A stretch of 16,961 nucleotides of DNA from Candidatus Hydrogenedentota bacterium. Its GTDB lineage: Bacteria > Hydrogenedentota > Hydrogenedentia > Hydrogenedentales > SLHB01. The notes beneath the pieces were generated by a model. It saw only the letters and a list, made by a program, of their open reading frames with translations. It ran no database searches and was not told the origin of the DNA. The position numbers were made by a program, and so were the translations under genes. Of this stretch, positions 1-16,115 are shown piece by piece (position 1 is the first letter of the stretch; each line of letters begins with the position of its first letter). The DNA lies in contig CAVUWV010000035.1 in the NCBI GenBank assembly GCA_963745075.1, forward strand, positions 1 through 16,961, given 5' to 3'.

Positions 1-953
1 CGGGGTCGTCACCCGGGAATTTAATGAATCGGACGTGTCCATCCATGTAGAGCACGTTGCAACCGCCCGGAATATGATTGAAGTTTTCAATCGCGACGGC
101 AACGCGATCCCACATAATGGGGACTTCACTTTGTGCTTTCGCCGAACCAGCAGGATTGTTGATGTCGGTGATGAGGAATCGCTCAATCCCCTCTCGGAGA
201 CGGGGCTCGATCCCTCCTGTTCCCATCGGCGGAACCCCGAGCGCTGCGCCAGCAGCAGACATCACATCGTTAACGTCGATATCAGAATCCGCGAGTTCGT
301 CATATGACGCATATCCCAGTATCGCTGCACCAAGATCATCATCGACGACAGTTCTCACGGCAAACATCGCTGCCAGGACATCGTAAGACATTCCGGTGGA
401 AGCAATTGCAGTGAGAAGTTTTGCCGTACTGGAATCCCGATTCAGCGTGGTAAAAGCGGTCGCGTTCAGGGTTTCTTTGGGCTGCCCTTGAAGCGTGTCT
501 TCTGGCTTAAGGAGCCAGCCGAAGTAGTTGTAGGACTCATTGTCGAACTTGCAGGGTAGAATCGGAAGATTCGGATCGCCGCCGACATGCCAGTCCTCTT
601 TCAACGTCTTCTGGCCTTCAGCATCCGAAGGGCAGATCGAATACCCGCATCCGTCAGGTATTCCGGATACAGTTCCGCCCCTTCAAAGAAGAATCCTGCC
701 CCGCTGGGTAGATCGCATACACCCGGCGTAGTCCCCTCAGTCATCGTCGACATGTGGGGATACTTCTCCCCTTCGATTCATTGGAGTACATCTTAAAGAT
801 AATGCCCATTTGCTTGAGATTGTTCTGGCAGCTTGCCCGCCGAGCCGCTTCCCGCGCCCGTGCCAACGCGGGCAGCAGGATCGCGGCCAGAATGCCGATG
901 ATGGCGATTACCACGAGCAATTCGATAAGCGTAAACCCTCGTTTGCCCTTCAT
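1..953 (-). CDS. Prepilin-type N-terminal cleavage/methylation + DUF1559 (SBP_bac_10)/H-X9-DG-like protein, copy 1; two apparent -1 frameshifts; runs off the window start
   Basis: ATG at 953 after RBS GGAAAGGGA; begins [48 protein letters not shown]. Adding one base at the C4 run (768-771) and one near 638-640 gives a continuous frame: SKGEKYP...LYPEYLTD...ICPSD...ESYNYFGW...[32 protein letters not shown]...[27 protein letters not shown], colinear with copies 2 and 3. Confidence 0.88.
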
Positions 954-1002
954 AATAGTTGTCCCTTTCCAGTTCTTCTTACTGACTCACGACACCGATA
1001 TG

Positions 1003-1041
1003 AACCGCGGCATTCGTCTGTGACGAACACGTACCACGGAA
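1003..1041 (-). ncRNA. Candidate cis-regulatory 5'-UTR hairpin, copy 1
   Basis: mRNA reads UUCCGUGGU ACGUG UUCGU CACAG ACGAA U GCCGCGG UU; same two-stem fold as 2816-2853 and 4391-4429. Confidence 0.6.
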
Positions 1042-1156
1042 TGCGCACCTCGAAAACTCGCTTCACGCCCAAAACTCGATATTCGTCACAATTGCCCTGA
1101 GGTCCCAATCATCCAACCCGGTTACCGCGCCCGGTACGGAACCCCGGCGGACGTGA

Positions 1157-1170
1157 CGACATCGTTGTCA
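1157..1170 (-). promoter_or_regulatory. LacI-type operator TGACAACGATGTCG (copy 1)
   Basis: Identical 14-mer at 2970-2983 and 4568-4581; imperfect palindrome with central CG; starts 6 nt downstream of the -10, over the predicted TSS. Confidence 0.75.
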
Positions 1171-1176
1171 TTCCCT

Positions 1177-1205
1177 AATGTAGCAGGGATTCCGGTTTCT
1201 GTCAA
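1177..1205 (-). promoter_or_regulatory. Sigma70-type promoter TTGACA-N17-TACATT, extended -10 (TGc)
   Basis: -35 at 1200-1205, -10 at 1177-1182, 17-bp spacer; the architecture repeats upstream of all three paralogs. Confidence 0.8.
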
Positions 1206-1668
1206 TGGGAAAGAAAGGGCGAAAATTCCCTGTTTTTTGCCCTTTTCCCGCGTCTCGTCCCAAGAAACGGCATTTCTTGGCGTGCCCAAATTCGGTCTTG
1301 GAGTCGTCCTGCCCCGCGCACCCCCGCCTTTGCGATCCTGAGCAGGGATTCTCACGCGCACAGCGTACCCACATCGCAACCTCTTTGTGTGTTGAGACTT
1401 CGGACAATAGCCGCACTCCCCGGACTATATGGTGTGCGTGCGAAAATCCCGAGAAAGACTGTAGGCTCACTGTAGAACACGAATCCTGGATTCTGGTTTG
1501 CGGTGAATCAGAGTTTTTGACGACGGTGTTCGCCGCGCGCAGCTATCTCGAAAGACTCACTCGCACGATTCGTCCAATTCCTGCCGAAGCTTCCAGCAGT
1601 GGCCGGCGTCTCGCATGTCGCATTGTCGGCATGGCGCTTTCCGATGGAAGCGGGCCGCTCCAACGGAC

Positions 1669-1696
1669 AAAAAAGGGCCCGGCCGAAGCCGGGCCC
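1669..1696 (-). terminator. Intrinsic terminator of DUF1559 copy 2
   Basis: Minus strand GGGCCCGGC-UUCG-GCCGGGCCC-UUUUUU, 28 nt after the stop codon. Confidence 0.9.
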
Positions 1697-1724
1697 GAAA
1701 CGAATTGGATGCTGAGACTGAACG

Positions 1725-2774
1725 TTAGTCGTTGGCAGCGACGATGACCGCCATGCTCTTGTTCACAACCGTACCGGTCGGATACTTCTCGAATTTGACA
1801 TGCCCGTCCATGAATAGCACGTTCGAACCGCCCGGAAGATGGTTGAAGTTCTCGGGGTGCGCCGAAACCAAGTCCGCCATGACGAAAACTTCGCTCTGGG
1901 CTTTGGCGCCGGCAGCCGGGTTGTTGATGTCGGTAATCAGGTAGCGCTCGATCCCTTCGCGCATACGGTAGATCGTGTCGCTATTCCCGTTGCCATGACC
2001 GGCGCCAGGGCCACCGCCCAGGTCCAGATTAATGTTGGCGGCTTTCGCGGCTACCCGGTTGAGAGTGTCGAAATCGGTCGGCGACACGCCGCCCGTAATC
2101 GCGGCGGTAACGGCTGCTTCGATAGCGTCTGCAACCTGTCCCAACGCAGCCGTAGCGCCAACCACCTGGAGGGACAACAACTCATCGCCGGTAATCACGC
2201 CTTCGTCAATCAGGTCTTGGACATCGCTGGACAAAGCCGCGACCGTGGACGCCGGGATATCCTGCGAATCGGCCTGATCGATCATCCAGCCGAGGTAGAA
2301 ATAGCTTTCATCTGACGCGCTGGTACCCATATCCGATTGATCGCAGGTGATCCAAAACCAGTTTTCCTTTGTCTCCGGGTTCTCGAGAATCCCCGGGTCG
2401 GATTCCGACGGGCAAACCGTCACATTCGGGTCCGACAGATACTCCGGATAGATGTCGGCAACGCGGGCAAAGAAGGCATCTCCACCGCTTGTGTCCTTCG
2501 GCGGAGCCGCCAGAATATCCGCATTCGAGCCGCCCGCTTCGCAGTCGTACCCTGGGAATCCACCAATTTCGATGATCGGATACACTTCACCGTCGCTTTC
2601 GTTGGCGAACATTTTCAACACCAAACCAAGTTGCTTGAGGTTGTTCTGGCATGACGCTCTTCTGGCCGCTTCGCGCGCACGCGCAAGGGCAGGCAACAGA
2701 ATTGCCGCCAAGATCCCGATGATCGCAATTACTACAAGCAATTCGATCAATGTAAACCCTCGTTTACTCCTCAT
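1725..2774 (-). CDS. Prepilin-type N-terminal cleavage/methylation + DUF1559/H-X9-DG-like protein, copy 2 (349 aa)
   Basis: [19 protein letters not shown] type IV prepilin motif (G-1, F+1, E+5); [16 protein letters not shown]-terminal [17 protein letters not shown]. Start placed at ATG 2774 from RBS GGAAAGGGGA and the alignment with copy 3. Confidence 0.93.
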
Positions 2775-2815
2775 AACACACATCCCCTTTCCATTTTACT
2801 TATGACTCCGAAATA

Positions 2816-2853
2816 AACCGTGGTTTTCGCATTGGCGAACACAGACCACGGAA
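2816..2853 (-). ncRNA. Candidate cis-regulatory 5'-UTR hairpin, copy 2
   Basis: mRNA reads UUCCGUGGU CUGUG UUCGC CAAU GCGAA A ACCACGG UU. Confidence 0.6.
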
Positions 2854-2969
2854 GACACACCAGGAAGACCGACCTACCATTAAGCTATGATGCCCGAATA
2901 TATTGGATTTGTCTTGACGGCGGGGAAACCCCAGTTCTCGCGCCCACTACCGAGCCCCGGAGGGCAACG

Positions 2970-2983
2970 CGACATCGTTGTCA
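2970..2983 (-). promoter_or_regulatory. LacI-type operator TGACAACGATGTCG (copy 2)
   Basis: Identical to copies 1 and 3; here it starts 15 nt downstream of the -10. Confidence 0.75.
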
Positions 2984-2998
2984 CCACCCAACATAGGT

Positions 2999-3027
2999 AA
3001 TGTATCAAGGAATCGGATTTCTGTCAA
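2999..3027 (-). promoter_or_regulatory. Sigma70-type promoter TTGACA-N17-TACATT, extended -10 (TGa)
   Basis: -35 at 3022-3027, -10 at 2999-3004, 17-bp spacer. Confidence 0.8.
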
Positions 3028-3243
3028 TCCGAAAAATGGGGCAAAACACCCGTTTCCGCTCCCGCATCTCGGTTCGTCAGACTTGGCAGTGGTGTTTAGG
3101 GCGGAAAATTAGCGCGGCTGGAAGCCGTGTCTACGCTGGCCGCCGTCTAACTGATAGTAGGTGATGAACTTAGGGAATCCAGGGTCTCGGAAACGGCCAC
3201 CGAGTCCATCGTTCCACGCCGGAAATCCTAGCGTTGTAGGAAC

Positions 3244-3270
3244 AAAAAGGGCCCGACCGAAGCCGGACCC
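3244..3270 (-). terminator. Intrinsic terminator of DUF1559 copy 3
   Basis: Minus strand GGGUCCGGC-UUCG-GUCGGGCCC-UUUUU; differs from the 1669-1696 stem only by changes that give G-U pairs. Confidence 0.88.
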
Positions 3271-3298
3271 TTTACTACACGAAGTCGGAAACTGATGA

Positions 3299-4348
3299 CT
3301 AGTCGTTCGCAGCGACGATAACCGCCATGCTCTTGTTGACAACCGTACCGGTCGGATATTTTTCGAACTTAACATGACCGTCCATGAACAGCACGTTCGA
3401 ACCGCCCGGAATGTGGTTGAAGTTCTCAGGGTGCGCCGAGACCAGGTCTGCGGACACGAAAACCTCGCTCTGGGCTTTGTTGCCGGCCGCCGGATTGTTG
3501 ATGTCGGTAATCAGGTAGCGCTCGATCCCTTCACGGATACGGTAGATCGTGTCGCTTCCACCATTACCATAGCCGGCGCCAGGGCCGCCACCCAGATCCA
3601 GATTAATGTTGGCAGCTTTTGCGGCTACCCGGTTGAGGGTGTCGAAATCGGTCGGCGACACGCCGCCGATAATCGCGGCGGTAACGGCCGCCTCTACGGC
3701 ATCTGTTACCTGTCCCAATGCATCCACAGCACCAATCACCTGGAGGGACAGCAACTCATCTCCGCTAATGTAGCCTTCATCAATCAGGTCTTGGACATCG
3801 CTCACCGCAGCGGCAATCGTGGACGCCGGGATGTCCTGCCCATCCGCCCGATCGATCATCCAGCCGAGGTAAAAGTAGCTTTCATCAACAGCGCTGGTAC
3901 CCATATCCGATTGATCGCAGGTGATCCAGACCCAGTTTTCACCGGATTCGGGATTCACAAGAATCCCCGGGTCCGATTCCGACGGACAAATCGTCACGTT
4001 CGGGTCCGTCATATACTCCGGATAAATATCGGCAACGCGGGCAAAGAAGGCGTCCCCACCGTTTGTGTCCTTCGGCGGTGCGGCCAGGATGTCCGCGTTG
4101 GTGCCACCCGCTTCGCAGTCGTATCCGGGAAATCCCCCGAGTTCGATGAGGGGGAAAACTTCTCCTTCACTTTCGTTGGCGAACATCTTGAAAATCAGCC
4201 CGATTTGTTTCAGGTTGTTCTGGCATGACGCCCTTCTGGCCGCCTCGCGCGCACGCGCCAAGGCGGGCAACAGGATTGCCGCCAAAATACCGATGATCGC
4301 GATTACCACGAGCAATTCGATCAACGTAAACCCTCGTTTACTCCTCAT
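3299..4348 (-). CDS. Prepilin-type N-terminal cleavage/methylation + DUF1559/H-X9-DG-like protein, copy 3 (349 aa)
   Basis: Same motifs as copy 2; by manual alignment about 36 substitutions in 349 aa (about 90% identity) and no indels. Start ATG 4348 follows RBS GGAAAGGGGA. Confidence 0.93.
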
Positions 4349-4390
4349 AACTCTCTTCCCCTTTCCAATCTTAATTATGACTCCGTCATG

Positions 4391-4429
4391 AACCGCGGTT
4401 TTCGCACAATGCGAACACGCACCACGGAA
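4391..4429 (-). ncRNA. Candidate cis-regulatory 5'-UTR hairpin, copy 3
   Basis: mRNA reads UUCCGUGGU GCGUG UUCGC AUUGU GCGAA A ACCGCGG UU. Confidence 0.6.
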
Positions 4430-4567
4430 AACACACTGTACAATTCTGCCTACCGTTAGGTAGAGCCGAACAGGCCCTGTATGCGTTTTGCCAGGAAGGA
4501 AATCCCCGAAATCCCCCGCATTAACCCCCAATTGCTCGGGCCCGCAACCGAACCTTGCCGAGCACCG

Positions 4568-4581
4568 CGACATCGTTGTCA
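4568..4581 (-). promoter_or_regulatory. LacI-type operator TGACAACGATGTCG (copy 3)
   Basis: Identical 14-mer, 6 nt downstream of the -10. Confidence 0.75.
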
Positions 4582-4587
4582 ATACAT

Positions 4588-4616
4588 AATGTAACAGGGT
4601 TCTTGATTTCTGTCAA
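4588..4616 (-). promoter_or_regulatory. Sigma70-type promoter TTGACA-N17-TACATT, extended -10 (TGt)
   Basis: -35 at 4611-4616, -10 at 4588-4593; the IS end lies 10 bp beyond the -35. Confidence 0.8.
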
Positions 4617-4625
4617 TGGGTAATT

Positions 4626-5950
4626 CAGGGCAATCGCATTAAAAGTCATACCTGCATGAGGAGTTCCTCGAGGTAGTCGTTGTTCCATGCGGCTTGCTTT
4701 CGTTTTCCCTTTACGCCGCGTTTACTGGACTTGTTTCTCTTGACGGTGTTGAGGGCAATCTTGCGGATGGTGTTCATGTTTTCGGCGGCGTGTCCGATTC
4801 GTATTCGGGACTGGTCTTCGTTGAAGGCCACGTCGAGCACCCAATGCAGGCTGTTCTCGATGCCCCAGTGGCTTCGGATGCTTTGTGCAATGGTGGCCAC
4901 ATCCTCATCCTTGGCGCTGGTGATGAAGTAGCGGTCTTCGACGGACGTGTCTGCCTTAAGGGTCCGTGTGGCGCGGCACATCACCATGCCACGCAATCCA
5001 GGCCATTTGTCGGCCGTGCCCAGACCCGCGATGTCCTGGGTATACCAGTACTGGCGCTGCTCGATGCGCCCGTGCCCCTTGTCCAGCGTCTCGTGGTAGT
5101 GGTGCTCCATGTGGGCGAAGCCGTCGGCCATGGCGTGCTTGAATTCCATTTCAACGTCCTCGGCCAGGGTCTCCTGGTTGCCTTTTACGGCCAGCAAGTA
5201 GTCGGCGTGGGCGTCGATGATGGTCTTGGCGATCCCGCGCTGACATCCCATCGCGTCGATGGTGACCAGACAGCCCTTCAGGTCCAACTGGCGTACGAGT
5301 TCGGGAATGGCGGTGATCTCGTTGGACTTCTCGTCCACCGTAACCTGCCCCAAGGCCAAGGAAGATTCGCGTGCCCACGCGCTCACTACATGGATGGCCT
5401 TCTTTCCCCTGCCCTGGTCATGGGAACGCCGGGCCGTCTTGCCGTCGATGGCTACTAGGCCCCGGACCCGCCCCTGAATGGCTTTCACCCACTCCCGGAA
5501 GGCTTCCTCGAATTGGTCGGGGTCCAGCAAGCTGAAGACCCGGCCAAAGGTGTCGTGAGAGGGGATACCATTGGGGAGCTTGAGGAAGGTGCGCAGCCAA
5601 TCCTGCTTGGCGTGGCCGAAGTCGGCGATCTCCGTCCAGCTATCGGCGCCGGCGATGGCGGCACAGACGGCGATGGCCATGATGTCGAGCAAGCTATGCT
5701 GCTTCTTGCGGTCCAAGCGGGGGTCCTCGACGCGCCCGAAACACGAAATGAATACGCTGCCATTTTCCGTCATTGGGTTCAATCTCCCTCGTGGTTTGGT
5801 TTCCGGGGAGAGGATATGTTTTCAGATAGTTATATATCAAACTACTATTACTTCGCAGATCGATCCCTCCTGGGAATTCAAGCGGAATACACGGGGTCAC
5901 GGACGCGGAGGCGTAGCTAGCGGCGCAGAACTTTTAATGCGATTGCCCTA
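4626..5950 (-). mobile_element. ISAs1-family insertion sequence (1325 bp)
   Basis: Terminal IRs CAGGGCAATCGCATTAAAAGT (4626-4646) and ACTTTTAATGCGATTGCCCTA (5930-5950), 20/21 match; flanking 10-bp direct repeat ATGGGTAATT at 4616-4625 and 5951-5960; encloses one transposase gene. Confidence 0.95.
4646..5773 (-). CDS. ISAs1-family (H-repeat associated) DDE transposase
   Basis: Motifs DPR...H.L.DI, PNGIPSHDTFGRVF, AIDGK..R.S, KSNEITAIP.L, VTIDAMGCQ, VKGNQ, GHGRIE.R, R.HWGIENSLHWVLDV.FNED; open frame. Start ATG 5773 (alternative TTG 5782). Confidence 0.96.
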   Translation of the reverse strand: MTENGSVFISCFGRVEDPRLDRKKQHSLLDIMAIAVCAAIAGADSWTEIADFGHAKQDWLRTFLKLPNGIPSHDTFGRVFSLLDPDQFEEAFREWVKAIQGRVRGLVAIDGKTARRSHDQGRGKKAIHVVSAWARESSLALGQVTVDEKSNEITAIPELVRQLDLKGCLVTIDAMGCQRGIAKTIIDAHADYLLAVKGNQETLAEDVEMEFKHAMADGFAHMEHHYHETLDKGHGRIEQRQYWYTQDIAGLGTADKWPGLRGMVMCRATRTLKADTSVEDRYFITSAKDEDVATIAQSIRSHWGIENSLHWVLDVAFNEDQSRIRIGHAAENMNTIRKIALNTVKRNKSSKRGVKGKRKQAAWNNDYLEELLMQV

Positions 5951-6132
5951 ATGGGTAATTAAAGGCAAAGCCGAACTCATTTCTTGCTTGGCGGGTAATC
6001 GGCCTCGGCGGGCATTCGGCGCGTAATCTGATTCGAAAGTGGCGCAGGAGACTTTCCGGTATTGAACCGCGAAGCCACGCGGTGCCTAGCGGGCGGGAAT
6101 CCTGGATTCTCCGCTCCAGCCAGCGAAATTCC

Positions 6133-6160
6133 TTGACAACGTTGTCGGGAGTAGGGTAAT
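6133..6160 (+). promoter_or_regulatory. Probable lacI promoter -35 (TTGACA) overlapped by palindromic operator TGACAACGTTGTCG (autoregulatory site)
   Basis: Perfect 12-bp palindrome GACAACGTTGTC at 6135-6146, one mismatch from the three DUF1559 operators. TTGACA at 6133-6138; the -10 is uncertain (GGTAAT 6155-6160). Confidence 0.7.
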
Positions 6161-6319
6161 TAGTAGGGGTAGGGTAACGTGGCCACGGGGCATGCACCGA
6201 TCCGCGTAGGCTGAAGTTTAAGGGGGCGCATCCGAAAAGACGAACGCGAGTCATTGGCAGGCGTCGAAGCTGCGAGCCTTGCCTCCGAAGTCCCATAACG
6301 AATCCTGGGTGAACGTGGA

Positions 6320-7420
6320 ATGACGAAGCAAGTAGACTATGTAGACAAGAGGGACCGGGTGTCTTTCATATGGACCATGCAAGAAATCGCCCGGGAAGTT
6401 GGGGTATCTACCAAGACCGTGAGCCGGGTTGTGAACGGAGAACCCGGCGTGCGCGAGTCAACCCGGTCCCGGGTGTCCGAGTTTATCGAGCGCGTCGGAT
6501 ACCACCCTCACGTCGGTGCGCGCAGTATGCGCAGTCAGTACCGGGATTGCATCGGGTGCACCATTCCGGCTCCCATGAGTGACGTGCCGGTCCACGAAGA
6601 TTTCTTTATTCGGCTCTTTTCACACTTGTATCGCGTTTTCGGGTCTCGCGGGAAGTACATCTGTTTCGATCTGAACCCCTACTTTGGCTCCTCCAATGGG
6701 GATTACGCCCGGGGATTGTTCGAGGGACGGTTTGCCGGTTGCGTACTCTGTGGTCCGTTAAGTCCCGACGACACTGCCATCCACCGGATTCATGGCTCGG
6801 GACTTCCCTATCTCGCGTTTGGACGTCTCGATAGCTTGCCCGAGTGCAGTAGCGCCGCCGTGGATTACGAAGCGGCGATGCGCTTATCGGTTTCCCATCT
6901 GATCGGGCGAGGCCATAAGCGGATCGGCGTGCTCAAGGGGTTTCATGGATATCAGCCCGGCGAGGAGCGCCGCCGAGGGTTTATCCGGGCGCACGCCGAT
7001 GCCGGGGTGAAGGCCGACGAATCGCTTCTCGCGGACGTGTCGTTCGCTGCCAACATTCTCACCGGCGCGGTGCACCGGCTGCTCCTGGACCCCACCGTGA
7101 CGGCGTTAATCGATTCCAGCGGCGCCGAAGATGCCGCGAGTATCCGCGAGGGATGCCGCCTCGCGGGCCGCAAACCGGGCGAAAACGTAGAGATCGTCGC
7201 GTGGACCTATTCCGAAAAGGCCGCCGTGCTTCCCGAAGCCGTGGCGCACGTGTGGCTTCCCGTTTGGGAGGCCGCCACCGAGGGCCTGGAGCGCCTCGCG
7301 GGATGGTTTGATGGCGATGGCGATGGTCCCATTCACGTGTTGTACCCGCCCACGCTTTCCGAGACGTTGACGCTTCATCAGGTGCTGAAACCGCAGCCGC
7401 TCTTTGATGTCAATCCGTAG
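6320..7420 (+). CDS. LacI/GalR-family transcriptional regulator
   Basis: HTH TMQEIAREVGVSTKTVSRVVN, hinge GYHPHVGARSMR, effector-domain motifs VDYEAA...HLIGRGHKRIG and ERRRGF. Start may be GTG 6359 (AGAGGGA upstream). Confidence 0.93.
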   Translation: MTKQVDYVDKRDRVSFIWTMQEIAREVGVSTKTVSRVVNGEPGVRESTRSRVSEFIERVGYHPHVGARSMRSQYRDCIGCTIPAPMSDVPVHEDFFIRLFSHLYRVFGSRGKYICFDLNPYFGSSNGDYARGLFEGRFAGCVLCGPLSPDDTAIHRIHGSGLPYLAFGRLDSLPECSSAAVDYEAAMRLSVSHLIGRGHKRIGVLKGFHGYQPGEERRRGFIRAHADAGVKADESLLADVSFAANILTGAVHRLLLDPTVTALIDSSGAEDAASIREGCRLAGRKPGENVEIVAWTYSEKAAVLPEAVAHVWLPVWEAATEGLERLAGWFDGDGDGPIHVLYPPTLSETLTLHQVLKPQPLFDVNP

Positions 7421-7658: not shown

Positions 7659-8441
7659 ATGGATTATTCGCATCTCGTCCTCGAGTTTTCCGGCCATCAT
7701 GCCACAATTACCTTGAGCCGGCCCAAGGTCAACGCATTGTCATCGGAGTTGATCGCGGAAGTTGGGCGAGCCCTGGATACCAGCGAATCGTACAGCGGTG
7801 TTCGGGCCATCGTCATTACCGGCGGCGAGGGCAAGTTCTTTTGCGGCGGGGCGGATATCCCGGCGCTGAAGGAGTCGCTGGACAACCCGTTTGGCCCGGG
7901 ATCGCCGTTGCCCGCGGGGATTGAGCTGATGGAGCGAATCGAGTCGAGCGCAATCCCCGTTATCGCCGCCATCAACGGTTTTGCGCTTGGCGGCGGTTGC
8001 GAGTTGGCGATGGCTTGTCATGTGCGGATCGCTTCGGATGCCGCCGTCTTCGGGCAACCCGAGATCAATCTGGGCATCGTTCCCGGCTGGGGCGGGTGTC
8101 ATCGATTGCCCCGGCTGATTGGTGAATCCCGAGCCGTCGAGTGGCTGTTGACGGGGCGAATGGTCAACGCGCAGGAAGCGTTGGAATCGGGATTGATCGC
8201 GAAAGTCGTTCCGGGAGAACAGCTTCCGGAAGCGGCTTCGGAAATGGCGGAAATGTTAGCGGCGAAGCCGCCGGTCGCGGTGAAGGCGATTCTGCGTGCC
8301 GTGCATGAACGGGCAAGTCATCCGGAGGCCGGCAAATCCCTGGAAGCGGAAGCCTTTGCCGAATGCGCCGCCAGCGTGGATGCTCGTGAAGGTATCGCGG
8401 CGTTTCTGGAGAAACGCGCGCCGCAGTTCCAGGGGAAATGA
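7659..8441 (+). CDS. Enoyl-CoA hydratase/isomerase (crotonase family)
   Basis: TITLSRPKVNALS, FFCGGADI, PVIAAINGFALGGGCELAMAC, FGQPEINLGIVPGWGG (both catalytic Glu positions present), DAREGIAAFLEKRAP. ATG 7659 follows GAGGG. Confidence 0.95.
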   Translation: MDYSHLVLEFSGHHATITLSRPKVNALSSELIAEVGRALDTSESYSGVRAIVITGGEGKFFCGGADIPALKESLDNPFGPGSPLPAGIELMERIESSAIPVIAAINGFALGGGCELAMACHVRIASDAAVFGQPEINLGIVPGWGGCHRLPRLIGESRAVEWLLTGRMVNAQEALESGLIAKVVPGEQLPEAASEMAEMLAAKPPVAVKAILRAVHERASHPEAGKSLEAEAFAECAASVDAREGIAAFLEKRAPQFQGK

Positions 8442-8442
8442 C

Positions 8443-10776
8443 TTGCGTTTCGTATTAGTCCCGCTGATCACATTGATCGTCGTCTGCGACGCCGGCGCGT
8501 TTGAAGCGGGCGCCGCGAAGGTGGAAATCACGCCCCCTCTTGGCACCCCTCTGAACGGCTACTACGACCGATTGGGCCGAGGCGCCGCCGATGTGCACGA
8601 TCCGGTTTGGGTGCGCTGTCTTTACATCAGCGACGGCGAAACTGCCGTCTTCCTGTTGAATGCCGATCTGTGCATCATCAACCGGGAACTGCACGACCGG
8701 GTTCTGGAACTTGCGCCGGAGATCGTGCCGCCCGAAAACATCATCATGACCGCGACGCACACGCACAGCGCGCAAGGGGCTATGAACCATGAGTTGCTCG
8801 CACGGTCAATCACCGGGCGGTACATGCCGGAGATTTTGGAGTCCACCGCCCGGCGTTTTGTCGAAGCCATGGGTTCCGCCTACGACAAGCGTATGCGCGC
8901 CACGATCGGTTACGGCACGACGAAGCAGGAAGGTCTCACCGAAAACCGTCAGATTCCGGACGGGCCGGTCGACGAACAGGTTGGCGTGATTCGGGTGGAA
9001 GATTCCGACGGAAACGCCATTGCCATTATCGGCAACCTCGCGGCACATCCTACAACCGTCGGGGGCGACGACAAGTTTTCCGTGTCGGCGGATTATCCCG
9101 GGTACTTCTACGATGAAGTCGAGCGCCAGGCGGAGCCGGGGTGCGTCGCCATGTTCTTGAACGGCGCCGAAGGCAACCAACGCCCTGCGAACCCGAAAAA
9201 CCTTTCGGGATGGGCGCGCACCGAATCCGTCGGTAAAACGCTGGCCGCACTGGTGCTCGAAGCCTCGGAAAAGATTGCGTGCAAGGAGGCCAAGCTCCAC
9301 GTCGGGTATGCGACGCCCGCGCTGCCGCCCACAATTGCCAGCGCGTTCATGCCGGAGCAAACCATCCTCCAGACGCTGGAAATCGACAATCTCCTGCTCA
9401 CCTTTTTCCCGGGTGAACCGTGTGTCGAAATCGGACTTGAATTGCGGCGCCAAGCGCGCAGCCGCGGATACGGCAATCAGTTCACGGTCGGACTCGCGAA
9501 CGACCACCTCCTGTATTTTGTGCCGGAGGAACTCTACGGAACGCTCACCTACGAGTGCGGCATGAACATGTACGGACCTCGAATCGATCGCTGGTTCTAC
9601 GATCGATTCGCGGAACTTATGACCAAGGGAGACCTTGCCGAGCCGCCGGCTGCGCCCGAACCGGCCAAAATCGAAGCGATCGACGGCGCCGAGCAGCTTC
9701 GATTGAAGGGCGATGCCTATGCGCAGGGTTATGCGCGCGGCGGGGCTTTTGGCGAGGCAATTCAGTCCGCTTACGACGATTACGTCGTTGCCCGCTGCAC
9801 GTCCGGCGAGTGGATTCCGAGCACTGGTCTCTGGTCGTGGGCGCCGCCGTTCTTTGACCAGACGCCTCTCGCGCTCCCGAGGCTGGCAATCGGCGCACGA
9901 CCGATGCTGGCCGGACTTGCGCCCGAGCGGCTCAAAGAGATCGAGGGCATTGCCGACGGCACAGGGCTCCCCTTCGATGCCATCTGGCTTACGCAGTGCG
10001 CGCCGACGTACGCCGCCCGAACCGATGTGACTACCCTGTACCGTTCGCCGTTCTGCACCATGGTCGCCGCCGTGGGCGATAAGGCCGGCGCCGACGATTG
10101 TGTGGTCGGGCGGAATTTCGATTGGTCCGAGCCGGAGTCCCCGGTGGTACTGGACACGTATCCCCAGGGCGGCCGGCACTTCATTGCGATTGGATTTCCG
10201 TGGAGCGCGGGCGTCTTCACCGGGATGAATGACGCCGGTGTCGTCGTTTCGGTCGAGCGCGTGGAAAATCGGGGAGAACCGTCGCTGGACGTGCCGCCCA
10301 TCGAATTCCTCGTTCGGGACGTGCTTGAGACGGCCGCCGACCCAGCTTCCGCGATAGAGATGCTAAAGGCCAACGCGAAAACCAGTGGATACCACGTGCT
10401 TGTTGCCGGGCCTTCGGGAGTGGAATCCCGAGTGCTGGAATTGGGAAGCACCGTGGTCGTGCGTGAACCGGTAGACGGGGTTCTCCTGGGCATCGATCCC
10501 GCTTCCGGCGCGGGTGACGAAGACGCGGTAGCCCGCTACCAGCGCATCGCGGAACTTGTTTCGACGGAACGCATCGTTTCCGCGGACGAAATGGGCGCTT
10601 TTCTGCAGGATCGCGCGGCCGGCCGGTCCGGGCAGGCCACCATACGCAACGAATGGACAAGGTATAGTGTTGTCTTTGAACCCAAATCCCGAAAACTGCT
10701 CGTCGCCGTACTCGACGGTTTGGCGGGCGAGGCGCAGTACCGCGCCCTCTCGCTCGTCGGGGGGAACGCGCCATGA
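8443..10776 (+). CDS. Secreted two-domain amidohydrolase: N-terminal neutral/alkaline ceramidase domain fused to C-terminal Ntn-hydrolase (peptidase C45/acid-ceramidase-like) domain
   Basis: TTG 8443 after AGGGGA gives the signal-like MRFVLVPLITLIVVCDAGA|FEAG. N-domain: GAAKVEITPP...LNGY, HDP, ATHTHS, AAHPT, SADYPG, NGAEGNQ, PGEP, GLAND..Y. C-domain: G.AYAQGYARG, EIEGIADG, F-C-T nucleophile site (TGC 10054-10056), VGRNFDW, GVFTGMNDAGV. Confidence 0.82.
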   Translation: MRFVLVPLITLIVVCDAGAFEAGAAKVEITPPLGTPLNGYYDRLGRGAADVHDPVWVRCLYISDGETAVFLLNADLCIINRELHDRVLELAPEIVPPENIIMTATHTHSAQGAMNHELLARSITGRYMPEILESTARRFVEAMGSAYDKRMRATIGYGTTKQEGLTENRQIPDGPVDEQVGVIRVEDSDGNAIAIIGNLAAHPTTVGGDDKFSVSADYPGYFYDEVERQAEPGCVAMFLNGAEGNQRPANPKNLSGWARTESVGKTLAALVLEASEKIACKEAKLHVGYATPALPPTIASAFMPEQTILQTLEIDNLLLTFFPGEPCVEIGLELRRQARSRGYGNQFTVGLANDHLLYFVPEELYGTLTYECGMNMYGPRIDRWFYDRFAELMTKGDLAEPPAAPEPAKIEAIDGAEQLRLKGDAYAQGYARGGAFGEAIQSAYDDYVVARCTSGEWIPSTGLWSWAPPFFDQTPLALPRLAIGARPMLAGLAPERLKEIEGIADGTGLPFDAIWLTQCAPTYAARTDVTTLYRSPFCTMVAAVGDKAGADDCVVGRNFDWSEPESPVVLDTYPQGGRHFIAIGFPWSAGVFTGMNDAGVVVSVERVENRGEPSLDVPPIEFLVRDVLETAADPASAIEMLKANAKTSGYHVLVAGPSGVESRVLELGSTVVVREPVDGVLLGIDPASGAGDEDAVARYQRIAELVSTERIVSADEMGAFLQDRAAGRSGQATIRNEWTRYSVVFEPKSRKLLVAVLDGLAGEAQYRALSLVGGNAP

Positions 10777-12353
10777 GCGACACCGTACGCAATTACACCG
10801 GTCAGGCAGGATCCCTTCGTTCCAGTGGGCGACGCCGGAGTGGTCGCCACGTTATCCGCAGAATCGTCTTGCCGTTGCTCGTTCTGTTAGTCCTCGCGGG
10901 ATGGTGGGTGACGCGCGATACCTATGAATTTACGGACTGCATACCGGGAGGCCAGCGATTCACGATGGTTCTCGCCGAACCGTTGCAGGCGCGGGATCGA
11001 ATCGTGCAGTCGCGCGTGTGGCAAGCGATACCCGCGTCGTGGACCGGCCCGGTGCGGCCCGACACGCTATCATCGGATCTGGGGTTGCCGGAATGGGTTC
11101 TGAACAACATCGTTCACCAGCGCGTCATTTTAACGGGCAATCGCGTAGATGAGTCCCCGGATATCGTCGCGCTGACCCGTATGACGCGCATAGGAACCAT
11201 CCTCGAACGGTTCCACGGTTGGTTTTCGGGAGTGGAAGACGACTACGCCGGTGGACTTCGACTGCGGTCGATTCCCGAGCAGGATTTGTATTACGCCGTG
11301 CGGGGTAGAATTCTGGTGGCCAGCCCGTCGCGAAGTGCGTTGATACGAGCCCTCACCCTTACCGGAGCGGACACGTTACGGCCGGAGAAATTCGACGAAC
11401 TCGTCCAAGCCGGCAACGAGGACCTTCGCGGCACGTGGACCACCCTGGCGGGATCTCCACTCGCGGACACCTTCGAATCGATCGCTTTCGCGGTTCGCAT
11501 CGATGCGGACTCCGCCAAGGCGAAATGCCGGGGACGTCTCCGGCCGGACGCCGCCAATCGGCTGGCCGCGGTTGTGAACGAGGCACGACCGGTTACGCTC
11601 GAGCAACCTCCCCCGGGGATGATCGAGTTGTCTGCCAACTTGGGTCGACCGATTCGGGACATGTGGGGGAGCCTTGGCGAGATCGCGGGGGTGTCGTGGT
11701 TGTCCGATGCCCAATGGAAAGCCTGGGAAGAGGGCGATCCCGACCGACCGCCGGGGATCGCGCAGTTCATTACGAACTTGCTGGGTGAAGCGGGACCGGG
11801 TATCCGGTTGTCACTCACCGGTGTCGACGTAAACGAGATGGTCCCGATGCCGCTGCTCGCGGGTACGGTGGATGCGGACCCCAATCGAATCGAAAAGGAT
11901 TTTGAATCGATTCCGCCGGCGCCGGATTCGGTCAAGCCGTGGGATTCTGTTCCCCGGTACGAAGCGGACGAACGGTTGGCGTACGTGCCGATGATTGGCG
12001 GGCCATCACTCGAACCCGCCGCTACGTTCTATCACGACGCGTTGCTGGTCAGTAGCAGCCGAAAGGTCGCCGAGGCCATCCTGGCAACAAACGAGCCGGA
12101 ACAGGATTTGTCCGAACCGGGGAATCTGTTTATCCGGGTTCATCCCGCTCCGTTGGTCGAAGCGATTACGGAATCGGGCCGTTTGTTGGCCGAATTCAAC
12201 GGACTTCGCGGGTATACCGGCGATTCCTTCGAAGATGCAGCGGCCCAATGGAAGGCGTCTGCGTCGGTCGTCAAGGAAGTCTCGGCCCTGGCGTCCATTG
12301 ACGAAGGGGCGATCGATCTGGAATTGCGCGTCGTTTGCGGCGACGCCAGCTAA
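10773..12353 (+). CDS. Hypothetical membrane-anchored protein (526 aa)
   Basis: ATGA overlap with the upstream gene; basic N-terminus followed by one hydrophobic helix (IVLPLLVLLVLAGWWV) and a long soluble domain; family not recognised. Confidence 0.8.
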   Translation: MSDTVRNYTGQAGSLRSSGRRRSGRHVIRRIVLPLLVLLVLAGWWVTRDTYEFTDCIPGGQRFTMVLAEPLQARDRIVQSRVWQAIPASWTGPVRPDTLSSDLGLPEWVLNNIVHQRVILTGNRVDESPDIVALTRMTRIGTILERFHGWFSGVEDDYAGGLRLRSIPEQDLYYAVRGRILVASPSRSALIRALTLTGADTLRPEKFDELVQAGNEDLRGTWTTLAGSPLADTFESIAFAVRIDADSAKAKCRGRLRPDAANRLAAVVNEARPVTLEQPPPGMIELSANLGRPIRDMWGSLGEIAGVSWLSDAQWKAWEEGDPDRPPGIAQFITNLLGEAGPGIRLSLTGVDVNEMVPMPLLAGTVDADPNRIEKDFESIPPAPDSVKPWDSVPRYEADERLAYVPMIGGPSLEPAATFYHDALLVSSSRKVAEAILATNEPEQDLSEPGNLFIRVHPAPLVEAITESGRLLAEFNGLRGYTGDSFEDAAAQWKASASVVKEVSALASIDEGAIDLELRVVCGDAS

Positions 12354-12383: not shown

Positions 12384-12473
12384 GGGGCGCGCAGGGCCCC
12401 ATCACGGGGCACGCAGGGCCCCATCACGGGGCACGCAGGGCCCCATCACGGGGCACGCAGGGCCCCATCACGG
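12384..12473. repeat. Tandem repeat, 4 x 22 bp GGGGCACGCAGGGCCCCATCAC
   Basis: Units start at 12384, 12406, 12428 and 12450; the first has one substitution; no spacers. Confidence 0.95.
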
Positions 12474-12528
12474 AAGAGTTGTGAAGGGGGATTGACATCC
12501 CCGAACTGGAACCGTTTCAGGACGACCT

Positions 12529-13757: not shown

Positions 13758-15957
13758 CTATGCGATGATCGCGACCGGCACTTTTTTGAACGCCGGGGTG
13801 CGCGACGCGGGATCGTGCGTGCGCGGCACGAGCACATTCGCCTCGGGGTAGTACATGGCCACGTTGCCGGGACGGATCTCCAATTCGCGTACAAGCACGT
13901 TGCTCAGCGCTCCTGCGGACGTACGTACCGTCACCGGCTGATCGAGTTGCAGGCCGAGCCGTTCGCGGTCGGACGGGTGCATCATGATGACGTCGCGCCG
14001 ATCCTGGCCGCGATAGACGTCTTCCTCTTCGTACACCACCGTGTTGAATTGTCCTTCCGAACGCAGCGTCATCAGCGTGAGACCGCTTTCCACTCGTGCG
14101 GGTGGCAACGACAGGGCGTGGAACTGCGCCTTGCCGGACGGCGTTTTGAACTTCGGGCTCATGGAACGTGCGGCCGCCGATCTGAAATTCCTGTTTGTGG
14201 CCGGCCACGTGTTCGATGGCCTCGTACCCGGGGATGATCTTGGCGATGACGGCGCGGATGCCGTCGTGTTCTTCCATCGCGTGCCAATCGATTGGGCCAT
14301 CCTTGTCGAAGAGCTTCTGTGCCAGGGCGGCGACGATTTCGACCTCGCTCCGCGGACCCTCGTACCGCGCGGGGCCGCCGTCGCTCAGGCGGACGTAGTT
14401 GAACATGGACTCCTGCGTCGTGGATTGGCGCTCCTCGTCCCGCGCGAGGACGGGCAGGATGATGGTTTCTTTGCCGAGTCCCATGGCGTGGCCGGTATTC
14501 AATGTTGTGCTCAGATACACGACGAGGTCGATCTTGCTCAACGCTTCTCGCGCGAAATCCGCATCCGGATTCGCACCATAAAGGTTCCCTCCCACGCAGA
14601 AGGCGAACCGGACTCCACCTTCCGCCGCGCGCTCCATACTCGCTAACGTGTCGAGTCCTGGAGTCGTCGGTGCGGTGAATCCGAAATTCTCCTCAAGGCG
14701 TTTTAACACCGCGGTCTTCAACTTCGGCGTGACCCCCATCGAACCGATACCTTGCACATTGCTGTGCCCGCGAATGGGAAGCAGTCCCGCGTTGGGTTTA
14801 CCCACCATGCCGCGCATCATCGCGAGATTCGCCAGCATCTGTACGTTCTGTACGCCGTGCTCGTGATGGGTGATGCCCATGGCCCAGGCAAAGATGGTGC
14901 CCTTCGACTTGGCATACATCTCGATGACGCGCGCCATCGTCTCGCGATCCACACCGGAAGCTTTGACAATGTCCTGCCACGTCAACCCATTCACCCAATC
15001 GCGGAACGCTTCCCAGTGTTCGCAATGTCCTTGAATGAAGTCGTGATCCAACGTGTATTGCTCGCGATCGAGTAATCCCTTCGCAATGCCCGCGAAGAAG
15101 GCAATGTCGGCGCCGATGTGCGGTTGCACGTATACATCGGCAATGGGTGAACCAAACAACATGCTCCGCACCTTCGACGGCACGCGGAAGTTTACAAGGC
15201 CCACTTCACGGATGGGGTTGACCACGACCACCTTGCCGCCGCGGGCTTTCATGTTGACGATGGTCGACATGAGCCGCGGATGGTTCGACGCCGGATTCGC
15301 GCCCACAAGGAATAGCAGATCGCAGTGCTCAACGTCGTCCAAAACGACGCTGGCCGTGCCGGAGCCGTACACGCTCGCGAGGCCGACCCCGGACGCTTGG
15401 TGGCAGTAGTACGAGCAGTTGTTCACGTTGTTCGTGCCGTACTGCCGCGCAAACAATTGGAGCAGAAAACCGGCCTCGTTCGACGAACGGCCGCTGAAGT
15501 AGAAGAAGGAGTCATCGGGCCGGTGGTCTTCAGCTTCTCCGCGATGCGGTCCAAGCGCGGCGTCCCACGAGATCGGCCGGTAATGCGTGGCGCCCGGCTC
15601 TGCCGTCACGGGTTCGACAAGGCGTCCAGAGGCTTCCATTTCACGGGAACTGAACCCTTGGAGGTCGGCGAGGCTGACGGTGCGGAAGAAGTCCTCGCGC
15701 ACGCGGCCTTGCATATCCGCCACCATGGCCTGAATAGATTTCTTGCAGACCTCCGGGAAATGGCCGCGCTCGTTCACCATGCCGCCCAGTTGACCGCCCA
15801 TGCCCAGCGCACAGGTCTTGCACGCATTCTTGCTACGCAACGCCGTGAACAACGCGAGGAATCCGCCGGCCTGCCGCGCCTTCCGCAACGTATAGAGAAT
15901 CGACGGCCAGCCACCGCCGGATTTGGGTTTGGGGCGCGCAGAACAGGAATCGGACAT
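13758..15957 (-). CDS. FdhF/YdeP-family molybdopterin oxidoreductase alpha subunit, with apparent frameshifts
   Basis: ATG 15957 after GGAG; GGGW, CKTC...EVCKK, YFSGRSSNEA, GTNNVNNCSYYCHQASG (Cys-His site), GANPASNHPR, WAMGITHH, PIRGHSNVQG. The C-terminal part (KFKTPSGKAQF...LMTLRSEGQFNTVVY...D.YRG...YYPEANVLV...DPASRTPAFK) is in the 13758..14300 frame, joined by a +1 shift at GGG 14155-14157. Confidence 0.9.
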
Positions 15958-16015
15958 GGTGGTTCTCCAGGAACGGAATTCGGACGAATTGCTTGCTTCG
16001 CAACCTTGCAGGATC

Positions 16016-16044
16016 ATTATCGCGCCGTCGCGCGGAGTTGGCAA
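16016..16044 (-). promoter_or_regulatory. Sigma70-type promoter TTGCCA-N17-GATAAT for the FdhF/YdeP gene
   Basis: -35 at 16039-16044, -10 at 16016-16021, about 60 nt upstream of the ATG. Confidence 0.55.
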
Positions 16045-16055
16045 GTGTGGGACCC

Positions 16056-16115
16056 CGGACGGACACGGACCGGCACGGACGGACTCGGACGGACTCGGAC
16101 CGGCACGGACGGATT
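16056..16115. repeat. Tandem repeat, 6 x 10 bp (CGGACGGACW / CGGACCGGCA)
   Basis: cggacggaca cggaccggca cggacggact cggacggact cggaccggca cggacggatt; three degenerate ATGGACnnnn units follow at 16131-16156. Confidence 0.85.

Follow-up and report, generated by a model that had tools for sequence, protein, structure and literature searches.

Candidate operators of a LacI-family regulator at DUF1559 pilin-like genes in Candidatus Hydrogenedentota

Contig CAVUWV010000035.1 of a Candidatus Hydrogenedentota bacterium (assembly GCA_963745075.1, here genome G000) is 16,961 nt long; the whole of this contig (C35) is the window analysed here. It holds three genes for prepilin-type proteins of the DUF1559/H-X9-DG family and, on the opposite strand, a gene for a LacI-family regulator (Table 1). 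Four CG-centred palindromes in the window are probably operators of this adjacent LacI, which would repress the three separately transcribed pilin-like genes and its own gene until a small-molecule signal is received; the pilin-like proteins may be nutrient-capture surface subunits. A LacI dimer is expected to bind each palindrome, to block initiation at the three pilin promoters and, at operator 4, to occlude its own -35 element. A small-molecule ligand would change LacI binding, and the pilin-like products would be processed by a prepilin peptidase to build a fibre of type IV or type II secretion system type. Binding of the window LacI to the sites is predicted with high confidence, and repression of the pilin promoters by binding over the transcription start is very likely. 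Autorepression by binding over the lacI -35 element is likely. The first-pass annotation of this DNA had proposed that the LacI represses the three genes and itself; footprints, regulator clades and promoter geometry now support the sites as LacI-type operators of the adjacent regulator that likely act in this way.

The 14-mer TGACAACGATGTCG occurs unchanged at three positions, as first reported, all on the minus strand; these are its only exact copies in the whole 6.8-Mb genome. A one-mismatch variant lies on the plus strand upstream of lacI, and the central CG is present in all window sites. Matches to the 14-mer with up to three mismatches number seven in the window against 2.09 expected, a count that none of 200 shuffles reaches. 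Each exact copy stands just 3' of a pilin -10 element, again as first described, with offsets of 6, 15 and 6 nt from TTGACA-17-TACATT promoter-like sites, so that bound repressor would cover the transcription start; a 9-nt insert separates the -10 from the operator upstream of gene 2. The variant site covers a TTGACA upstream of lacI as proposed, but the symmetry attributed to it extends only over its inner 12 bp. Genes 2 and 3 end in hairpins that resemble intrinsic terminators, and the pilin-like genes are therefore likely to be separate transcription units.

Table 1. Features of the window considered here, with positions in the 16,961-nt contig
Feature	Positions	Strand	Details
Gene 1	1..953	-	DUF1559/H-X9-DG prepilin-type; TIGR04294 33 bits on 2-604
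Operator 1	1157..1170	-	TGACAACGATGTCG; begins 6 nt past -10
Promoter-like site, gene 1	1177..1205	-	TTGACA-17-TACATT
Terminator-like hairpin, 3' of gene 2	1675..1696	-	intrinsic-terminator-like
Gene 2	1725..2774	-	intact DUF1559/H-X9-DG prepilin-type protein, 349 amino acids
Operator 2	2970..2983	-	TGACAACGATGTCG; begins 15 nt past -10 (9-nt insert)
Promoter-like site, gene 2	2999..3027	-	TTGACA-17-TACATT
Terminator-like hairpin, 3' of gene 3	3246..3273	-	intrinsic-terminator-like
Gene 3	3299..4348	-	intact DUF1559/H-X9-DG prepilin-type protein, 349 amino acids
Operator 3	4568..4581	-	TGACAACGATGTCG; begins 6 nt past -10
Promoter-like site, gene 3	4588..4616	-	TTGACA-17-TACATT
ISAs1 element	4626..5950	-	1325 bp; transposase 4646-5773; outside the regulon
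Operator 4	6134..6147	+	TGACAACGTTGTCG; overlaps TTGACA 6133-6138 upstream of lacI; likely autoregulatory
LacI-family regulator	6320..7420	+	366 amino acids; TK-TVSR recognition helix, A67/M70 hinge, remodelled effector domain

Genome-wide scans indicate that the motif is not spread at random, in line with a prediction of the first-pass annotation. A position matrix trained on 17 sites of relatives, with the present genome left out, was scanned over the 6.8 Mb and ranks the four window sites 1 to 4, with operator 4 at the top score and a site at C8:214400 in fifth place; further high-scoring sites (C8:397459, C33:37201, C10:175782 and others) are not claimed as targets. Sites of the TGACAACG type lie within 450 nt of 4 of the 37 prepilin-type genes, namely the three window genes and C8:213220. 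Of 303 promoter-like sites across the genome, five carry a LacI-type palindrome between -2 and +16 from the -10; four of the five fall in two lacI/pilin cassettes, and the background is 1 in 299 for the others. The window genes had been called the local output of the regulator, but its regulon is not confined to this locus, since the fifth site precedes a DUF1559 pair on another contig. In this distal pair (G000:C8:211741-214413, locus L112), CGACAACGTTGTCG lies about 95 nt past TTGCCA-17-TACACT, and the closest relative of the first gene sits inside the lacI cassette of genome G002. The location of the distal site is shared with syntenic loci of G003 and G004, but its alignment position differs.

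The regulator belongs to a tight LacI subfamily (at least 44% identity) found in 86 of 135 genomes of Ca. Hydrogenedentota. A scan of all species genomes gave 60 loci, 42 of them titled Ca. Hydrogenedentota (or -es, -ales), eight Nitrospiraceae/Nitrospirales and one Bathyarchaeia, with labels as given. A divergent pair of the subfamily lacI and a DUF1559 gene is present at 63 of 109 loci: 31/53 in a first set, in which the window is counted as not divergent owing to its ISAs1 element, and 32/56 in a second. In the first set a pilin lies within 3 kb of 36 of 53 subfamily genes; the background is 161 of 5596 genes, and the figure for other LacI/GntR-type regulators of the phylum is 16 of 34 rows. 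At subfamily loci a palindrome stands 3' of 51 of 81 pilin promoters (26/40, and 25/41 in the second genome set), mostly 5-7 nt past the -10, or 26/50 and 24/50 when counted per pilin in the two sets. None of seven pilin promoters beside other regulators (control loci) is followed by such a palindrome. Footprinting of orthologous loci finds the palindrome at orthologous lacI promoters, as would be expected of the operators first proposed. Compact relatives have a single operator 5-6 nt past the pilin -10, and its TGACA half-site is at the same time the lacI -35 on the other strand, within a TTGACA-18-TAYCAT promoter. This overlap supports autoregulation even though the promoter scan of the window detected no consensus -10 for the TTGACA of lacI.

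Operators of the subfamily fall into three classes that follow the regulator tree (quick IQ-TREE, 51 rows): GAC/GTC in the window clade, GTA (GGTAAYCGRTTACC), and TTAT in the AN clade, which includes a paralogue on contig C13. Among the 31 new loci that have a site, the effector domain gave the right class for 29. Published sites for IK-TVSR regulators include TGACAACGTTGTCA and one-letter variants of it in 15 rows of Dataset S1 of PMC2978694. Judged from the sequences, the two-residue code (residues 15 and 16) alone does not set specificity, and the three classes enlarge the data available for a LacI recognition code. The genome has two LacI helix-turn-helix (HTH) genes, the window LacI and the C13 paralogue, each divergent from a DUF1559 gene; the paralogue has an AN-TVSR helix and its own palindrome, AATTATCGATAATT. 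In this second cassette (G000:C13:71791-74143, locus L111), AATTATCGATAATT stands past the promoter of the AN-class lacI, and a degenerate copy follows the pilin -10.

Operator type follows regulator clade, and the sites are therefore assigned to the window LacI and not to its only paralogue. The other assignment, in which the adjacent lacI is a mere neighbour and the sites are bound by the C13 paralogue or by a regulator whose gene the assembly lacks, is very unlikely. It draws on the 89.7% completeness of the assembly, from which another LacI could be absent, and on G004 (72% complete), which has a site before a DUF1559 gene and in which no subfamily gene was found; against this, the paralogue sits in the AN clade with TTATCGATAA sites, and all seven members of the TK/IK subclade of the window LacI have a GAC-type site at their own promoter. 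Another view takes the repeats as relics of tandem promoter duplication and the palindrome as a by-product of back-to-back TTGACA elements. The flanks of the three sites, first described as diverged, are so only in part, since the upstream regions align as paralogues with 68% mean column identity, and one half-site overlaps TTGACA. Other clades, however, retain the spacing between the -10 and a CG-centred palindrome whose arms lack TGACA (GGTAATCGATTACC, TTATCGATAA), distal copies precede unlinked pilins, and the genomic background is low. The duplication account is already largely refuted and is highly improbable.

Several points nevertheless weigh against the sites being operators of the window LacI. 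Across the three pilin upstream regions, the 14-mer is no better conserved than the -35 block and a block in the leader. The three pilin copies stem from duplications, and their operators are not independent, given 90% identity between genes 2 and 3 and paralogous upstream regions that share conserved blocks; repetition alone is therefore weak evidence. No consensus -10 accompanies the lacI TTGACA of the window, as noted above, and the incomplete assembly counts here as well. The TK class has no hits in the accessible part of the published recognition code (PMC2978694), AK helices are found with GTA as well as GAC/GTC sites, and one TK-TVSH protein is paired with a GTA site. No classifiable site was obtained in 25 of 56 new loci, and six rows of the second set were dropped for an unmatched HTH pattern. 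The relatives are kin, many nearest neighbours in the second set are more than 80% identical, and the counts given above are thus descriptive and overstate independence. Among distal GAC-class sites, 26 of 31 do not precede pilins, and 22 of 31 are flagged inside called open reading frames (ORFs).

The window LacI has an N-terminal LacI HTH (PF00356, 57.9 bits against a cut-off of 27) with the recognition helix VSTKTVSR, and its Arg at amino-acid position AA-20 and the G at nucleotide position NT-6 of the site (T/C-G-ACA) agree with the published rule that pairs the TVSR Arg with this G (PMC2978694). Hinge residues A67 and M70 align to A53 and L56 of LacI, and the effector domain (PF13377, 32.7 bits) is of the periplasmic-binding-protein type. 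An AlphaFold 2 (AF2) model (mean predicted local distance difference test score, pLDDT, 84.8) has the LacI fold; Foldseek leads to CcpA (3oqo, E 4e-20), CelR and PurR, and a profile search leads to CcpA (1zvv, E 4e-42). The two-domain fold is shared with the solved structures of CcpA, PurR, CelR, RbsR and LacI, but the window LacI is only 18-24% identical to these proteins. It reaches none of the NCBIfam equivalog cut-offs, with 76.7 bits against 442 at best, and a search of the ESM Atlas returned only generic LacI clusters with no ligand clue. Among other subfamily members, those at loci L053, L062 and L047 have a degenerate hinge helix, for example GPHLMP replacing GARSMR; L053 and L062 have no palindrome at the pilin promoter, and their regulators are possibly decayed.

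The pilin-like genes had been proposed to be metabolite-inducible, and the effector domain speaks against a sugar as the inducer. In an alignment of 113 subfamily sequences with LacI, PurR, RbsR, GalR and Cra of E. coli, the equivalent of LacI R197 is retained in 112 of 113, whereas LacI Y273-D274-D275 is replaced by W-[TS]-Y in 111 of 113 and the N246/D247 region by S-G-T; WTY occurs in none of 32 control regulators. At the D149 position the register differs between two alignments, with Asp in neither. N246 and D274 are polar sugar contacts of LacI, and contacts of this type in LacI, RbsR and GalR are thus replaced. As Cra is without N246 and D274 too, the ligand could still be a sugar that is phosphorylated or modified in another way. 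Induction by the ligand is moderately favoured over co-repression, and the chance that the ligand is a carbohydrate or a derivative of one is about even.

Genomic neighbourhoods also yield no conserved catabolic or transport target, with none among the 192 of 280 picked neighbour ORFs that were scanned, and this too counts against sugar induction. Conservation of the genes beside the cassette stops at the genus level, and sugar-related families (GH38, GH116, GH127, DUF2961, RhaA, RhaM, YdjC, alpha-amylase and others) each occur at a single locus amid housekeeping genes. What the sites do accompany is mostly pilins. All 16 exact GTA-class sites in five genomes stand at lacI or before a DUF1559 gene; eight of them are distal sites in G007, where no pilin adjoins lacI, and two of these distal loci are near-identical copies. 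The 39 GAC-class sites in five other genomes include eight at the cassette and five before distal pilins, and G003, G004 and G005, from the genus of the window bacterium, have DUF1559 genes with a distal site in front. A candidate non-pilin target is possible in a single case, locus L318:1107-1629 (G012), in which a perfect GAC-type site lies over a promoter-like element between a secreted protein without a Pfam match and a BD-FAE esterase. One direct glycan link was seen among subfamily distal targets, at L334:3146-8600 (G007), where a GH38 alpha-mannosidase gene comes next after two operator-bearing DUF1559 genes of the same strand. At L040:10414-11929 (G032), again a single case, two pilins with operators have ExbB-ExbD-ExbD 700 nt downstream, in the same orientation.

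The pilin-like proteins have the class III signal G↓F-x3-E (PF07963, TIGR02532; G↓FTLIE). Matches to PF07596 (DUF1559) reach 43.5-45.3 bits against a cut-off of 23.3, over model positions 2-27 of 268 only, and TIGR04294 (H-X9-DG) scores 26.5-33 bits against 19. Genes 2 and 3 each match PF07963, TIGR04294 and the beginning of PF07596. Compared with the 90% between genes 2 and 3, gene 1 is about 39% identical over its C-terminal part; it has two frameshifts (near 770 and near 640) and is truncated at its 3' end by the contig end. Public reads from four sequencing runs fall mainly on the ISAs1 element and on conserved pilin motifs. The AF2 model of gene 3 (pLDDT 81.7) has a 52-residue N-terminal helix; Foldseek gave no match at E<=0.001, which is no evidence of a new fold, and VIA-align gave a weak match in which the best row (Z 5.9, root-mean-square deviation 3.2, 95 aligned) is EpsG and each of the first 12 rows is a pilin or pseudopilin. 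The genome has 29 PF07596 matches, one prepilin peptidase match (PF01478), seven secretin matches (PF00263) and only two TonB-receptor matches. Capture of substrate by the pilins, for which we would put the chance a little below even, is favoured because glycosidase-linked pilins occur in the phylum, TonB receptors are few and dextran-binding fibres offer an analogy (PMC5394234).

The glycosidase-linked pilins come from control loci of other regulators, where 80 of 210 ORFs were scanned, mostly at loci chosen with a pilin. At seven of these (L072, L076, L077, L081, L089, L101 and L107), DUF1559 genes beside other LacI/GntR-type regulators stand directly upstream of glycoside-hydrolase or ATP-binding-cassette (ABC) genes, namely GH42, DUF2961 with an esterase and GH116, GH32, or a beta-helix protein with ABC genes. 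In a tree built with FastTree only, five control-locus pilins and five subfamily pilins form one group at 98% local support. The links give indirect support for a glycan role, and together with this grouping they argue against a serious if unlikely alternative. In it the sites are true operators and repression takes place, but what the regulator senses is a partner protein or the general state of metabolism or of the cell envelope (as with Cra, PurR and CcpA), and the pilins are interchangeable adhesion or pilus-variant subunits instead of substrate-capture proteins. That alternative would explain why the targets are almost solely pilins without enzymes or transporters for sugar and why the effector residues are unlike those of LacI, RbsR and GalR, with Cra, which also lacks N246 and D274, as a precedent. 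CcpA is moreover the best profile and fold match, the heads of the pilins are fast-diverging, at 28% mean column identity, and the regulated pilins do not form one clade (10 changes on the tree). On the other side, the periplasmic-binding-protein fold and the R197 equivalent are kept, and the match to CcpA is at only about 24% identity. A bolder extension of the preferred reading, in which LacI represses pilin-like genes until a ligand is sensed, is doubtful: the phylum-wide subfamily would be a dedicated DUF1559 controller with a pocket rebuilt (W-T-Y, R-x-x-G, a conserved His, Arg and aromatics) for an undescribed ligand, and interchangeable pilins, each subunit with its own nutrient-specific switch, would form a pilus-based nutrient-capture system and serve as uptake adaptors that replace TonB receptors.

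The switch itself is a textbook LacI operator system; what sets this one apart is the phylum-wide subfamily, its almost pilin-only targets and its rebuilt effector domain. It shares the TVSR HTH, hinge helix, CG-centred 14-bp palindrome, divergent gene pair and likely autoregulation with the local autoregulated LacI/GalR regulons described in the parts available of Ravcheev et al. 2014 (PMC4052901) and Camas et al. 2010 (PMC2978694), and differs from them in its targets (DUF1559 pilin-like genes and lacI) and in an effector W-T-Y in place of the Y-D-D of LacI. According to the main text of PMC4052901, local LacI regulons concern sugar transport or catabolism in 176 of 182 groups with an assigned pathway and 72% of LacI factors are autoregulated; the words 'pilin', 'pili' and 'Planctomycet' are absent from that text. 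A LacI regulon that is almost wholly pilin-like thus departs from the rule that local LacI factors act on sugar transport and catabolism.

DUF1559/H-X9-DG proteins are heavily expanded in Planctomycetota and several uncultured phyla, with no function assigned; PMC8567305, as far as its accessible text goes, gives at least 41 per Planctomycetales genome, and the 'solute-binding' label of PF07596 (SBP_bac_10) appears in the consulted part of PMC2754498 as an annotation and not a tested function. The window genes share with the planctomycetal proteins (PF07596, TIGR04294) the class III signal, the DUF1559 start and the C-terminal H-X9-DG motif. A search of an open literature library found no regulator reported for DUF1559/H-X9-DG genes of Planctomycetota and no paper on a LacI-DUF1559 cassette, with subscription papers and unopened supplements outside its scope. 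Dextran-binding pili-like fibres of Planctomycetes (Boedeker et al. 2017, PMC5394234) are a possible functional analogue as macromolecule-uptake fibres of a DUF1559-rich phylum, but the phylum is a different one, the fibre subunit is unnamed in the available text, and a link to DUF1559 is speculation. The signal of the regulator, once found, would hint at the role of the pilin-like proteins. A soluble LacI with a predicted operator that can be expressed in E. coli would make this question about an uncultured phylum routine through a ligand screen.

A conserved leader hairpin occurs in all three pilin 5' regions on the minus strand (about 985-1035, 2800-2850 and 4375-4425). It has the form CCGTGGT...TTCG-loop-CGAA...CCRCGG, with inner pairs that differ among the three leaders, and a similar hairpin precedes two pilins at locus L031 of the relative G003. 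The hairpin has no Rfam match, and folding z-scores for the whole leader range from -0.8 to 0.1 and are not significant. An Rfam scan of 900-6400 found no riboswitch; its six matches, all far below the gathering score, lie on a terminator hairpin.

The ISAs1 element parts the gene 3 promoter from lacI; it lies 9 bp upstream of the -35 of gene 3 and is flanked by a 10-bp target duplication (4616-4625 and 5951-5960). Two further full copies in the genome are 99.8% identical; the insertion is recent, and the transposase reads toward gene 3. It could have removed an upstream promoter element or could give read-through into gene 3. Transposases adjoin other cassettes as well (L031, L065 and 3' of the C13 lacI).

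Elsewhere in the window, positions 8296-12353 hold a fusion of alkaline-ceramidase-like and acyl-transferase (C45) parts, then a 526-residue membrane-anchored protein without a Pfam match; these genes are syntenic with lacI within the genus only. A molybdopterin oxidoreductase at 13758-16044, presumably FdhF/YdeP-like, seems to be frameshifted near 14200, and DUF1559 genes on contigs C10 and C24 of the same genome are split. Together with gene 1, these frameshifts hint at indel errors in the assembly. Short tandem repeats were seen by eye before scpA (a unit of about 20 bp, 12385-12475) and upstream of the oxidoreductase gene (a 10-bp unit, 16055-16115).

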